From positions 129,409-193,408 of the forward strand of contig CAJFUN010000023.1 in NCBI GenBank assembly GCA_904420205.1: a stretch of DNA of 64,000 bases, given 5' to 3'. Position 1 is the stretch's first letter; every line of letters starts with the position of its first letter. This document shows positions 26,401 through 32,400 of this stretch, piece by piece. A program made the position numbers. The stretch is from Candidatus Parachristensenella avicola. Its GTDB lineage: Bacteria > Bacillota > Clostridia > Christensenellales > UMGS416.

Positions 26401-29400
26401 GTGACTTGCTATGGTATAAAGGCACAGAGAAAGGAGCAAGCGATGGGCGATGCGGTTTCCGGCCCCACGCTGGGACAGCGGGTCAAAAAGCTTTTGATTC
26501 AGCGACCCCAGGGCATCAACGTGCCCAAAATGGCCTGGATCCTATGGGCAGTCAATATTACGCAGATGGCTGTGCTGGCGCTTTTGCTCATTATGCTGGT
26601 AACCGGCCATGAGAATCTGCCGGACTGGGCGTTGGTCTTTATTTGCCTGACGGTAGCGATGAGCAACGTGATTATGACGCGTTCAGGCCGCACGGTGGCC
26701 GGATACAAGCAGCAGGTGGAGGAGATGGACGAGCTCATCCACAATCAGGACGATCTCAACCGCCAGCTGCGTATGCAGCGGCATGATTTTATCAATCATC
26801 TGCAGGTCATCTATGCACTTCTGCAGATGGATGAGAGCGATCAGGCCATGGAATACATGGATAAGGTATACAAAGACCTGCAGCGGGTAGGCTCGCTGCT
26901 GAAAACCAAAAGCTCGGCGGTGAACGGGTTGCTGGCGGCCAAAAGCGTCCAGGGCGAGAAGCGGGGCATACGCATGGCCTTTGACATTACGACGGGGCTG
27001 GGCGATTTGCCGCTGGAGGACTGGGAGCTATGCCGCGTCCTATCCAACCTGATCGACAATGCAATGGATGCGGCTGAATCGTCGCAGGATGCAGCGGTGG
27101 AGCTGAAGCTTTGGGAGGATATCCAGGGGCTGCGCTTTCGGGTGACGAACCGGGGCCCCATGATTCCCGTGGAGATGCGGGAGCGCATTTTCCTACCGGG
27201 CGTTACCACCAAGGGAGACCGGGGGACGGGTATGGGTCTGCATATTGTGGACAGCATCCTCCGGGAACACGGCGGGGCGATTGAGCTGCATAGCGACGAG
27301 ACGGAAACAAGCTTTGAGGGACGCATTCCGCTGCAGCCTCACCCGGTACAGAAGGGCGACAATTAAGCCTCCGCCCTGTATGGATCAGGCAGAAAACCGA
27401 CATCATGGGCGTGGGGCGTGCTATACTACAATAAGTAGAATGAAAGAGGTGGGAGATATGTCTGCTATGCAATTTCTGCTTTATATGGGGTGGCCGGCGA
27501 TTACCTGCCTGGTACTGGGACTGGGGCTGATGATTTATGAGATGTTTACGCCAGGGTTCGCCGTGCCTGGGATTACAGGGCTTATTCTGCTGGCGCTGTC
27601 GGTCGTCTTAACGGCCCGTTCCCTTTCACAGGCGCTGATTATGATCGTGCTGATCCTGATTGTGTTGTCTCTGGTATTCGTAATTGCGCTGCGCTCCGTG
27701 ACAAGCGGGCGGCTTTCGCGCTCGCCCCTGGTGCTGAAGGAAAGGGCGACCAAGGAGGACGGCTATCTTTCCACCCAAGATATGAACTATTTTGTGGGGC
27801 GCCACGGCATTGCGACAACGGTGCTTCGCCCGGCGGGCACAGCGGATTTTGAAGGCGTCAAGCTGGATGTGGTGACAGAGGGCGAATTTATTGAAAAAGG
27901 CCAACCGCTGGAAGTTATTCGGGTAGAGGGCCGCAGAATTGTGGTAAGGGCCGAATCGTAGGCCTTTTCCAAGGATAGAAGCGAAGGAGGATTTTTTTAT
28001 GATCAACCCCATGCTGCTGGCGATGGATGCGGGCGTCGCGTCCATTGTCGGACCGATCATCGTCATTGTACTCATTATTATCTTCCTGGCGGTTTTGTTC
28101 AGCTTTGTGCCGATGAAGCTATGGATCGAGGCCATGGCCTCGGGCGTTCACGTCGGTATCGGCCAGCTGATCGGTATGCGGCTGCGGGGCATTGCTCCGG
28201 TTCGGATTATTTACCCGATGATTAAGGCGGTTAAAGCGGGCCTAACCGTGCAGCTGCCCCGGCTGGAAACCCATTACATGGCTGGCGGCAATGTGGATCG
28301 GGTGGTGAACGCGCTGATTGCTTCGCAAGGCGCGGGGATTGACCTGGGCTTTGAGCGTGCCTGCGCCATTGACCTGGCCGGCCGCAACGTGCTGGAGGCG
28401 GTGCAGATGTCCGTCAGCCCCAAGGTTATTGAAACGCCGGTCGTCGCTGCCATTGCCAAGGATGGCATTGAGCTTCGGGCCAAGGCGCGGGTCACCGTGC
28501 GAGCCAACATCGACCGGCTGGTCGGCGGCGCCGGAGAGGAAACCATCATCGCGCGCGTGGGCGAAGGTATCGTTACTACCGTGGGCTCGTCGGACACCCA
28601 CAAGCAGGTACTGGAGAACCCGGATCTTATTTCCCGCACGGTTTTGAACAAGGGCCTGGATGCGGGGACGGCTTTTGAGATCCTCTCCATTGACATTGCC
28701 GACGTGGATGTAGGCCGGAACATCGGCGCGCAGCTGCAGATGGATCAGGCGGAGGCCGATCGGCGCATCGCCCAGGCCAAGGCCGAGGAGCGCCGGGCGA
28801 TGGCTGTGGCTCAGGAACAGGAAATGGTTGCGCTGGAGCAGGAAATGCGGGCTCGCGTGGTCGAAGCAGAGGCCGAGGTGCCGCGGGCCATGGCCCAAGC
28901 CCTGCGCGAAGGCAAGCTCGGGGTGATGGATTACTACAACATGCAGAACTTGCAGGCTGATACCACCATGCGCAACTCGATTTCCGATATGGGCAATCCC
29001 GCGCCGCAGGATCATAAATAGATGACCGGCCGCGGGAAAGGGAGGTAACGCAATGGATTTAATCGTATGGATCATTGTGATTGCCTGCATTGTGTCCGCT
29101 GTGAACAAGAAGGGGAAAAAGCAGGCCAAACGGCCGCCGCAGGCCCCCAGCAGACCTACCCCTGTGCAGCCTCCGCGCCGGCCTGAGCCGCAGGCGCCTT
29201 CGAGCGCCGGGGCGCAGCTGCTCTCGCAGGCGATGAACGACGCGGTGAGTAGCGCGGCTGCCGGAGGGGCGACCTGGGCTAAAAAGCTGGCGGAAGCCCT
29301 AAAGGAGGACGATTTTGAGGAGCCCGCTAAGGTGAAGGCCGAACCCGACCACAGCCATCAGGGCGTCCATCGGCCCTTGGCGGATTCGGGCGAGGGAGCC

Positions 29401-32400
29401 TTTTCCTCGCAGAGCCAGTGGATCGAGCAGCGCGCTCAACCGGCGGAGGCAGCTTCTCCCAAGATGCCGGATCCCTGCCGGGCAACAGCATCCAGAGCGG
29501 CTGATCCTTGCCGGGCGGTGGCGCCTACTGTTGGATCGGTACGCAAGCATGCGGGCGGCGCTCCCCTGATGCAGGGCGGCGAAAACCTGCTTTCCACCCA
29601 TCGAGCCACACGCAGGTCCGGATCGATCAGCCAGCGCAGGCAGCGCATACTGACGGTCGACAGCCAGTCATTGCGACAAGGCGTCGTGTGGAGTGAAATC
29701 TTGAACCGCCGAGGCGGAAGGAGGAGTATCCATTGAACCCCATTCGTGTTCTAATTGCCGACGACCAGCCGGGCATGCGGATGATTCTATCCAAAATCCT
29801 GGAGAAGAACGACGCCTTTGAACTTATCGGCGAGGCAGAGGACGGCCAGCAGGCGCTGGAGATCTTTGAACGCCAGAAGCCGGAGGTGGTGTTCCTTGAC
29901 GTGGAGATGCCCAAGGTGGACGGATTGGAATGCGGCCGCCAGATTGCGGATATGGACCCCACGGCATGCCTGATCTTCGCTACGGCTCATGACCAGTACA
30001 TGAAGGAGGCTTTTGAGGTATATGCGTTTGACTACCTGGTGAAGCCCTTTAAGGTTGAGCGGGTGCTGGAAACGTTGGAGCGCATTGCCGAACGGGCCAA
30101 GATTCGCAATGCTCAGGCGGAATCACGCATTGAGGCGGCGGAACGCCGCCAGATGGGATTGGCTAAGCTGCTGATCCGCCATAAGGAAGGCGTCAGCCTG
30201 ATCGATATGGAAGACATCATCCTGGTGCAGCGCGAGGACCGGGCCACAGCCATCTATACGGTGAACGAGCGCGTGGTGACCAGCGAACCGCTGAGCGATT
30301 TAATGGAACGATTGGATAAGCGGCTCTTCTTCCGAAGCCATAAGAGCTATATCATTAACCTGGCCATGGTCAGCAAAATCTACCCTTATGGCCGCTGGAC
30401 CTATGTGGTGAAGCTGAAAGGTACGAAGCAGGACGCGCTGATTACCTATGAAAAGTTTAATGAGATGGAAGAATTCTTCGCCAAAAACAATGGATAACGC
30501 GCTTTTTTGCCGGGGCCGTCGAAGGACGGCCCTTTTTTGTCTGAAATTAGAGGAAAAATGAGAGGATGTTCTGGCAGGAATATGGTAAACCCCATCGAAT
30601 ACTACTAATATAGCATGATTTCTCACGAATAAAGAAGTTTGCATAATAAATAAAATGTCGAAGTGGGAAGGATATATCGTGGATAAAGACAACCAGGTGG
30701 ATGCAACGGCATACCGGCGCGGGCAAAGCGACCGAATTTTGCTTCTAGGGCAGATGGCTGCGGGGATTCTGCATGATGCCGGAAACCAGATGATGCTCAT
30801 TCAGGGAGCGTTGGGGTTGGCCCAATATGCGCCAGGCGACCCCAACTATGGCCCGACCATGAAAGCGGCCCAACAGGCGGCCGATACGGTGGGGGAATTA
30901 TTGAAGGAAATCCTCTCTTTTATCCGTCCGGAAAAGGGGCGAAATGATCCGAGGGCAGGCGTCTATGGCGACGATGAAATCATGATGATGCTGCCGCTCA
31001 TCCGATCTTCCTTGGGTGGGCGGATCGAAGTGCTTGACCAGCTGAATTCTGAGGATGACCGGATCCATATTAGTGCAGTGCAGTTTCAAAACGTGCTGCT
31101 GAACCTCGTGGTGAATGCCCGTAACGCCATGAAAGGCCAGGGCGTCATCGTGCTGAAGACGGAGAACCTTATGCTCGAGGGCAGGCCCTTTTGGCGGCTG
31201 ACGGTGCAGGACGATGGACCTGGGATCCGTCCCGAGCAGCTGGATAGCATTTTTGAACCCTACTTTACGACCTCAGGCAAGGGCCATGGTTTGGGGCTGA
31301 TGCGCTGCCGGCTGCTGGTAGAGCAAGCAGGCGGCCATATTGTAGCGGAAAATGGGCAGCCGCGGGGCGCATGCTTTACGATAACGTTGCCTGTCATGGA
31401 GGAGCCGCTGGCGGGGAAGGAGGAACCTGAGCTATGTTTAGGCTCCGGCCGCATTGCGATCCTGATGGCCAAGGAGCATCAGGATATGGTTTCCAGCATG
31501 ATCCGGGCGTTGGGCTATACGCCGGTGAACATGCTGGGGCTGATGGATCTCAAGCGCTTGGAACATGATCCGGTGCTTTTGGTCCTGATGGATGAAACAA
31601 AGGCGTTGAGCTCATATCTTAAGGCGATCCCGGCGGACTGCCCCATTTTGGCCATCGGCCAGTTCGATACGGTTATGCGCCAGCCTGATCCCCGGGTTCG
31701 CATGGTGGAGCGGCCCGTTACCCTTTTACGGCTTTCGCACCTGATTCGGGACATCGTGGGCTTTGAGCCGGAGGAGCGGCAGCCATAATACCGCTGGATA
31801 GAGAGAAGTCGGCGTGTGCCGGCTTTTTTATGATGAAAAAAGAAATTCGCTTAGGCGGCGCGCGGGGGCGCAAGGTAAGGCTTGAATCAGTATGCGACCA
31901 ATGGTAAAATGTGAAAAGAAGCAAAGGAGGCGAATCATCTATGATTCCAACACTAGATCAGGTGAAGGAAGCAAAGGCAAGCTTCCCAGCCTGGATCCAG
32001 CATACGCGCCTGCTGCCGGTGCAGATCCCCGGCTGCGAGGCGCAAAGTTATGTTAAGACGGAATGTTTGCAGCGCACCGGCGCCTTTAAAGTACGTGGCG
32101 CCTATAACCGCATGCGGATGCTCACCGAGGAGGAGAAAAAGGCGGGCGTTATTGCCAGCTCAGCCGGTAACCATGCGCAGGGCGTGGCGCTGGCAGCCCG
32201 GGAGATGGGGATCAAGGCGACCATTGTGATGCCGCAGTTTGCGCCGCTGTCCAAGGTTAACGCCACCCGCGCGCTGGGCGCGGAGGTAGTGCTCCACGGC
32301 GAGATTTATGACGACGCATATGCTTATGCATTGGAGCTGGAGAAGACCACGGGCGCGACTTTCATCCATCCCTATGATGATCCCATGGTGATCGCCGGCC

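Follow-up and report, generated by a model that had tools for sequence, protein, structure and literature searches.

Gene content of the nfeD-floA locus

The DNA analysed here is a stretch of 64,000 nucleotides from Candidatus Parachristensenella avicola (hereafter the window), and its subject is a module at 26443-30497 in which a membrane histidine kinase gene, nfeD, the flotillin gene floA, a gene for a membrane-anchored protein in the position of YqfB (here called X) and a LytTR response regulator gene follow one another. The G+C content of the window is about 57%, and its nearest relatives are uncultured Clostridia. A previous sequence-only reading had described five co-directional genes with a TTGA overlap at the last junction and one clear terminator behind the regulator gene, and the five open reading frames were indeed recovered on the + strand at the same coordinates by ORF calling and Pfam searches. 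The features of the module are as follows.

26370-26397, + strand: putative sigma-A promoter of the kinase gene, TTGCTT, 16 nt, TGaTATACT (extended -10), read from the sequence and missed by a strict consensus scan
26443-27366, + strand: histidine kinase, 307 amino acids (aa), Pfam SPOB_a and HATPase_c (GHKL)
27358-27367, + strand: distal regulator box GACAATTAAG, overlapping the kinase stop codon (27364-27366), the sole match to GACADTTVAG in the window
27378-27387, + strand: proximal, weaker regulator box GTATGGATCA, a GTAT-type repeat 20 nt after the distal box
27397-27408, + strand: putative -35 region CCGACATCATGG, with a -35-like sequence or possible third GACA repeat GACATCATGG at 27399-27408, 41 nt after the distal box
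27419-27427, + strand: extended -10 TGcTATACT of the nfeD promoter, at a fixed distance from the distal box
From 27458, + strand: nfeD start codon ATG
27458-27961, + strand: NfeD, short form, 167 aa, Pfam NfeD_membrane and the NfeD C-terminal OB-type partner-binding domain, protease domain absent
27999-29021, + strand: FloA, flotillin-like, 340 aa, Pfam E=5e-162, NCBIfam FloA equivalog 549 bits against a cutoff of 393
29053-29736, + strand: X, membrane-anchored, no Pfam family
29733-30497, + strand: LytTR response regulator, 254 aa, TTG start, Pfam Response_reg and LytTR
30512-30539, + strand: intrinsic terminator after the regulator gene, a stem-loop (30512-30533) followed by a T-run

The junction between X and the regulator gene reads CAT TGA / TTG AAC, so the stop and start codons share four bases as had been described, and a GGAGG ribosome-binding site precedes the TTG start. 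The terminator behind the regulator gene (fold energy -21.4 kcal/mol, z=-2.66) is the only convincing intrinsic one in the module, which agrees with the previous description, and no terminator-like fold was found in the 91-bp spacer between the kinase gene and nfeD (z=-0.86).

Conservation of the gene order

Species-representative genomes were scanned with FloA, the 80 closest loci were kept (72-82% identity), and the proteins of the window served as tblastn queries against their surroundings. FloA is preceded by an NfeD homologue in 78 of the 80 loci and an X-like gene follows floA in nearly all of them (about 75 loci, regulator present or not), which bears out nfeD-floA-X as a conserved core. 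A regulator orthologue (50-57% identical) comes after X in 22 of 72 evaluable FloA loci, and the kinase gene stands upstream of nfeD in 4 of 75. The sequence-only reading had seen here a signalling pair split by an inserted nfeD-floA module; the arrangement is real and conserved, but floA has the regulator beside it far more often than the kinase, and the conserved partner of the flotillin module is the regulator, not the kinase.

The complete five-gene order recurs in at least 11 lineages, namely the window and the loci L001, L003, L006, L008, L017, L028, L035, L091, L098 (the complete 4.3-Mb genome OW818679.1) and L099 (Clostridium fallax, GCA_900461065.1). Two look-ups that started from regulator homologues, in OW818679.1 and Clostridium fallax, both led to the full five-gene unit. 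Across the five-gene loci, kinase identity is 35-52%, regulator identity is 43-71% and the flanking genes differ; because the order recurs with kinases so far diverged and in such different flanks, it goes beyond chance, and an arrangement that is real and conserved in this way argues that the kinase, the regulator and the flotillin module are functionally linked.

The genomic context of ten kinase homologues was also examined. Four belong to kinase-NfeD-FloA-X-regulator units (P0013, P0019, P0028 and P0044), and the other six are orphans with no regulator nearby, three of them directly after rarA/mgsA, two after dnaE and one alone. In three lineages, the orphan homologues at L004 7001-7906, L093 6001-6885 and L096 6001-6930 come right after rarA/mgsA with a start/stop overlap of 1-4 bases, and the site downstream of rarA/mgsA is a recurrent alternative home of the kinase gene. 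In a rough neighbour-joining tree the orphan kinases formed one clade nested among the flotillin-linked ones, which fits relocation of the kinase gene better than an unrelated paralogue. The flanks of the kinase-less loci contained no kinase gene by tblastn with both window kinases at E<=1e-5; their upstream neighbours are genes for a SpoU methylase and UDG, those downstream are unrelated, and Pfam searches with ten flanking ORFs of these loci returned SpoU methylase, UDG, NUDIX, ZIP and histidine phosphatase.

A putative tandem-box operator at the nfeD promoter

A shared motif was first seen in the printed 200 nt upstream of nfeD, in all regulator-bearing loci. It consists of a tandem pair of boxes with the pattern GACAtTTgAG, 10-11 nt, GTATnnTTnn. 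Matches to GACATTTGAG with at most 2 mismatches and no more than 260 nt upstream of nfeD were present in 24 of 26 regulator-bearing loci as against 4 of 52 regulator-less loci (Fisher p=7e-14), and the two regulator-bearing loci that had no such match show recognisable variants of the box. The second, weaker repeat (GTATnnTTnn or GACAnTTnAG) is found 20-21 nt downstream of the first box in most regulator-bearing loci, and an (A/T)TGACA-like motif occurs at the matching offset of the -35 region in several loci. The -10 hexamer, usually of the extended type TGnTAnnnT, begins exactly 64 nt after the start of the distal box in 23 of 29 loci; if 63-65 nt are allowed the count rises to 26 of 29, and the spacing also holds in both Clostridium-type loci. 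These results were obtained from mismatch counts to the distal box and from spacing measurements; a pooled weight matrix for box pairs had been tried and was dropped, because the consensus of the proximal repeat differs and is weaker and the matrix missed the window's own site.

The short gaps are not enough to make the five genes a single operon. The conserved box-promoter element lies in the spacer between the kinase gene and nfeD and amounts, in sequence terms, to an internal promoter at that place, an observation that the sequence-only reading had itself named as evidence against its view; the five genes of the window therefore probably form two transcription units. No second box pair was found in the 64-kb window, and none of the kinase genes in nine kinase-bearing loci was preceded by a regulator-type box.

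The kinase

The kinase has only two hydrophobic segments by hydropathy, residues 30-57 and 59-81, which form a transmembrane (TM) hairpin, and the sequence-only reading was right in giving it two TM helices with almost no outside loop. The SPOB_a domain, a DHp (dimerisation and histidine phosphotransfer) domain, begins at about residue 98, carries an RHDF H-box and is followed by HATPase_c. With the DHp domain starting there, no room is left for a cytoplasmic sensor domain, and Pfam detected neither PAS nor HAMP in the protein. An intramembrane-type kinase devoid of a ligand-binding domain, as had been suggested, is thus borne out by topology and domain content, and its small size and two-TM input domain match the architecture of intramembrane-sensing kinases. 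The ATG start is backed by a GGAG 8 nt upstream and by a 307-aa homologue with 99% identity (P0001).

The homologue search returned about 77 proteins of about 295 aa with equal architecture, after which the scores fell to DcuS-type kinases of 430 aa. Conservation over 73 family members extends to the H-box (RHDF), the N-box (NLxDNA) and the G2 box (GxGMGL), and polar residues are kept within the membrane helices as well, Asn/Gln in TM1 and Asn/Arg where TM2 ends. The conserved polar residues and the hairpin-only input point to a signal borne by the membrane or to a partner membrane protein. The HPK10 class proposed earlier had to be given up: the best NCBIfam match of the kinase is DcuS/MalK, its core is DcuS/MalK/CitA-like, the AgrC model reached 58 bits against a cutoff of 500, and the two-TM topology likewise led us to reject an HPK10/AgrC assignment.

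The response regulator and protein X

The acidic pocket (DD), the phospho-acceptor Asp (FLDVEMP), the Thr (FATAH) and the Lys (KPF) of the regulator are each at least 90% conserved over 27 orthologues. The phospho-acceptor residues are intact in loci that have no kinase as well, and their conservation even there suggests that phosphorylation of the regulator is still needed. The residues of kinase and receiver are, at the sequence level, those of a classical two-component system, and the two proteins would be partners in phosphotransfer, judging from their synteny in 11 lineages. Orthologues of the regulator are numerous (more than 4,000 at E<1e-40). A metagenome scan with regulator peptide patterns, which were over-specific, gave one true orthologue (L100, 98% identical) together with unrelated receiver proteins.

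X has its membrane anchor at the N terminus, followed by a Lys-rich stretch and a spacer rich in Pro, Ala and Gln, and carries the conserved motif VVWSEILNRRGGRR at its C terminus. The X-like genes of other loci have in common the N-terminal anchor, a low-complexity spacer and the C-terminal motif [VI][VI][WM]SE[IV]L.RP..RR. A relaxed Pfam search with X and five counterparts gave only noise, and the counterpart in L098 has a faint precomputed match to PF27722 (YqfB). At L091 the gene between floA and the regulator gene (6988-7479) encodes a soluble 163-aa protein unrelated to the YqfB-like anchored X.

A proposed circuit with the flotillin module as output

Because the operator is found at the nfeD promoter and accompanies the regulator gene from lineage to lineage, an autoregulated nfeD-floA-X-regulator unit is the most economical reading of the locus. 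We regard it as rather probable that the flotillin module is the output of a dedicated two-component circuit, with the regulator activating nfeD-floA-X and its own gene. The hairpin kinase would be made from its own promoter, with the two-helix membrane hairpin as its sole input domain; it presumably responds to a change in the membrane and would then phosphorylate the LytTR regulator. The phosphorylated regulator is predicted to bind the two 10-bp direct repeats, located some 76 and 55 nt ahead of the transcription start, and thereby to switch on the extended -10 promoter directly before nfeD. This promoter would drive nfeD, floA, the gene of the YqfB-like anchor protein and the regulator gene, giving positive autoregulation, and transcription would end at the regulator terminator. 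The kinase gene lies just upstream of the nfeD promoter in the window and in ten other lineages, and in most others it would be placed elsewhere in the genome.

From these sequence patterns we infer that the regulator binds the boxes, activates rather than represses, and is cognate with the kinase. What the regulator controls is likely to be the flotillin operon, and its most obvious partner would be the hairpin kinase family, which is found immediately upstream in 11 lineages and is orphan elsewhere, where the regulator is orphaned as well. As to the signal, the homologous operon of Bacillus subtilis belongs to the sigma-W envelope-stress regulon (PMC3498285), and FloA-NfeD of Staphylococcus aureus protects cells and is needed under stress (PMC11222466); by analogy with these roles, membrane or envelope stress is the best guess for the input of the kinase.

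Several observations weigh against this proposal. The 80-locus FloA sample is biased towards the FloA proteins nearest to that of the window. Most regulator-bearing loci have no adjacent kinase (among those with enough upstream DNA it is adjacent in 4 of 21 and not adjacent in 17), and the pairing of kinase and regulator therefore rests on synteny in a minority of lineages. Within the window the single match to GACADTTVAG compares with 0.56 expected by chance and is not significant, so that the case rests on conservation across loci, and the proximal box is weak there and fails the pooled weight matrix. The -35 and -10 elements of the nfeD promoter are fair in several loci, and the promoter might therefore be partly constitutive, or the regulator might modulate it and not switch it. 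Lastly, L052 has the box and the promoter and no regulator orthologue within 6 kb.

The match in L052, about 89 nt upstream of nfeD, is a box and promoter of textbook form (GACAATTGAG, 64 nt, TGCTATACT), and that genome may carry the regulator gene at another place.

Alternative explanations

The main idea of the sequence-only reading was that NfeD, FloA and X are the sensory input, the sensorless kinase reading the state of the microdomain or membrane through contacts with them. A kinase that is a bare TM hairpin joined straight to the DHp domain would suit such a role, as would the polar residues conserved within its TM helices and the adjacency of kinase and nfeD in 11 lineages, and hairpin-only kinases typically depend on accessory membrane proteins, as BceS does on BceAB and LiaS on LiaF. 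FloA is also known to tether the kinase PhoR physically in B. subtilis (PMC4409396). On the other hand the adjacency is dispensable, with a kinase next door in 4 of 21 regulator-bearing loci and six of ten kinase homologues orphan, and X and NfeD look alike in loci with and without the system. We consider this explanation possible if rather doubtful, and it could coexist with the flotillin module as output in the form of a feedback loop. A more far-reaching reading is a closed homeostatic loop formed by the NfeD-FloA-X assembly and the hairpin kinase: the kinase would sense how far the flotillin assembly is occupied or what physical state it is in, and the regulator would match flotillin synthesis to it. 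We offer this reading tentatively and hold it to be unlikely; the sensed state could reflect the load of unfolded clients or lipid order. The tethering of PhoR by FloA and of ResE by FloT (PMC4409396), together with the conserved gene clustering, is also compatible with FloA being only a scaffold for dimerisation and signalling of the kinase, the true regulon of the pair lying elsewhere in the genome. Against this, the regulator-type boxes are located exactly at the nfeD promoter and occur together with the regulator, and the 64 kb of genome searched contained no further box pair; although other targets may lie beyond this stretch, we judge a pure scaffold role to be quite improbable.

The circuit with flotillin output also has to be weighed against repression, in which the regulator would shut down the nfeD promoter or act in unphosphorylated form, and the adjacent kinase would be mainly a phosphatase or no partner at all. 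A reasonable -35 (ATGACA) with an extended -10, present in several loci, might fire without an activator, and many regulator loci have no kinase nearby; but boxes that precede the -35 with constant helical phasing are the usual geometry of activation, for which AgrA provides a precedent (PMC4227749), and all phospho-acceptor residues are conserved. We give this explanation little credence. Very improbable, in our estimate, is that the adjacency of kinase and nfeD is an incidental drift of gene order and that the kinase works in another pathway, for example as an orphan feeding Spo0A. Clostridial orphan kinases can feed Spo0A, the kinase family is also found as orphans beside rarA or dnaE, and in two loci from related metagenome-assembled genomes spo0A lies two genes upstream of the kinase gene on the opposite strand (L003 5236-6009 and L008 1388-2164), a proximity that is probably coincidental. 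Drift would hardly be expected to keep the kinase gene, in 11 lineages whose flanks are unrelated, always in one place and orientation just before nfeD. It would also have to account for orphan kinases that form one clade nested among the flotillin-linked ones in the neighbour-joining tree, and for orphan kinases and kinase-less regulator loci that are complementary, as expected of a split pair.

Comparison with known systems

The yqeZ(nfeD)-floA(yqfA)-yqfB operon of B. subtilis (PMC3498285) has the same order of NfeD, FloA and a small anchored third protein as the window, and like it the module would be a stress-inducible unit that ends in a terminator. The B. subtilis operon uses an extracytoplasmic function (ECF) sigma promoter, whereas the window module has a LytTR regulator with tandem boxes; unlike its B. 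subtilis counterpart, the window operon also carries the regulator gene, and its NfeD is of the short 167-aa form without the protease domain. In 52 regulator-less loci, the DNA upstream of nfeD contained no sigma-W-like ECF site (TGAAAC-N16-CGTA-like). Judged by its sequence, the module is not sigma-W controlled, and it would be a clostridial functional equivalent of the sigma-W control of yqeZ-floA-yqfB.

In LiaFSR/liaIH an intramembrane-sensing kinase induces a membrane-protective scaffold and its own regulator. The module resembles this system (see also PMC11237479) in its small TM-hairpin kinase, in a predicted autoregulated operon with membrane-associated protective or scaffold proteins and possibly in a need for accessory membrane proteins. 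In contrast to LiaFSR, its regulator is of the LytTR and not the NarL type, homologues of LiaF, PspA and LiaI are absent, the DHp domain of the kinase is SPOB_a/DcuS-like, and the kinase gene stands outside the induced unit and is often unlinked.

The boxes GACAATTAAG of the window and GACAGTTAAG of L006 resemble ACAGTTAAG, which we take to be the AgrA consensus. AgrA binds two direct repeats just upstream of the promoter at P2 and P3, and S. aureus AgrC-AgrA (PMC4227749) has in common with the module a LytTR regulator that contains a receiver, a pair of direct repeats spaced by about 21 bp, or about two helical turns, that abut the promoter or -35, and positive autoregulation, which in the module is predicted. 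As a sequence pattern the tandem repeats of the module are of the Agr type, with boxes 20-21 nt apart and 64 nt to the -10. ORF calls and Pfam found no agrB/agrD-like genes at the locus, the kinase has two TM helices and a DcuS-like core in contrast to the six to seven TM helices of HPK10, and the predicted target is the flotillin operon in place of RNAIII/agr; because the peptide genes are missing and the class and topology of the kinase are wrong, the module is not an Agr system.

LytTR Regulatory Systems (LRS) such as HdrRM and BrsRM, and the Bacteroides examples in which NfeD-like membrane proteins are encoded beside a LytTR regulator in LRS-like operons (PMC6193735), are similar in that a LytTR regulator is co-transcribed, in the module presumably, with membrane proteins and direct repeats occur at the promoter. 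In an LRS of the HdrRM type the LytTR regulator has no receiver and is paired with a membrane protein that inhibits it. The window regulator differs in its intact canonical receiver, and the presence of this domain means that the module is not an LRS; moreover, a histidine kinase adjoins it in 11 lineages, and its NfeD is the partner of FloA and not a DUF2154 fusion. Scaffolding of PhoR by FloA, of ResE by FloT and of KinC (PMC4409396) is likewise a functional connection between a flotillin and a membrane histidine kinase. In Bacillus it consists of the physical tethering of kinases encoded elsewhere, whereas the window shows a genetic and cis-regulatory link that apparently has the flotillin genes as its output.

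Significance

All parts of the module are of known kinds, that is, an intramembrane-type kinase, a LytTR regulator with tandem boxes and an nfeD-floA-yqfB operon. The role of bacterial flotillins is debated, with scaffolding, control of fluidity and a holdase function for unfolded membrane proteins under discussion, and to our knowledge the regulation of floA outside Bacillus is essentially undescribed. In the literature searched, no publication was found that links a LytTR two-component system to floA, the nearest being the LRS-like operons of Bacteroides (PMC6193735). In many Clostridia the flotillin genes appear to be activated by a LytTR regulator of their own at a conserved AgrA-like operator, and this would provide a direct route to the signal that controls flotillin. 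A reporter of the nfeD promoter in a cultured species such as Clostridium fallax would be a simple read-out to screen for the inducing signal, and it would also reveal any feedback of flotillin on its own sensor. The operator motif allows flotillin regulons to be predicted across gut and environmental Clostridia. The system would pair a DcuS-like kinase core with a LytTR regulator and illustrates how a kinase gene may leave a locus while the regulator remains. If the closed loop were true, it would be the first system dedicated to sensing and controlling bacterial membrane microdomains, and the inducing signal would show the purpose of flotillin.

Neighbouring genes in the window

The rho gene lies upstream of the module on the opposite strand. 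Right after the module terminator, a promoter-like site (30620-30647) precedes a gene on the + strand (30655-31788) for a soluble histidine kinase of 377 aa; the protein contains HATPase_c, and a partial NCBIfam match of VirA-like type runs into a C-terminal extension. A homologue of this kinase occurs at the equivalent position in the closest relative, L001, only, and the gene is probably outside the conserved module.

A second LytTR response regulator is encoded at 21716-22429 on the - strand, next to a TM-less GHKL kinase-like ORF (21048-21779) with an RHDYRNH H-box, after which come two ABC ATPase/permease genes (17246-20954, - strand); from its sequence, the segment 17246-22429 on the - strand appears to be an exporter unit of its own under LytTR control. 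In the interval between this unit and the LytTR module, 22547-24794 on the + strand carries a gene for a 506-aa AraC-family regulator followed by a gene of the aminoglycoside 3-N-acetyltransferase family (Antibiotic_NAT, E=2e-46).

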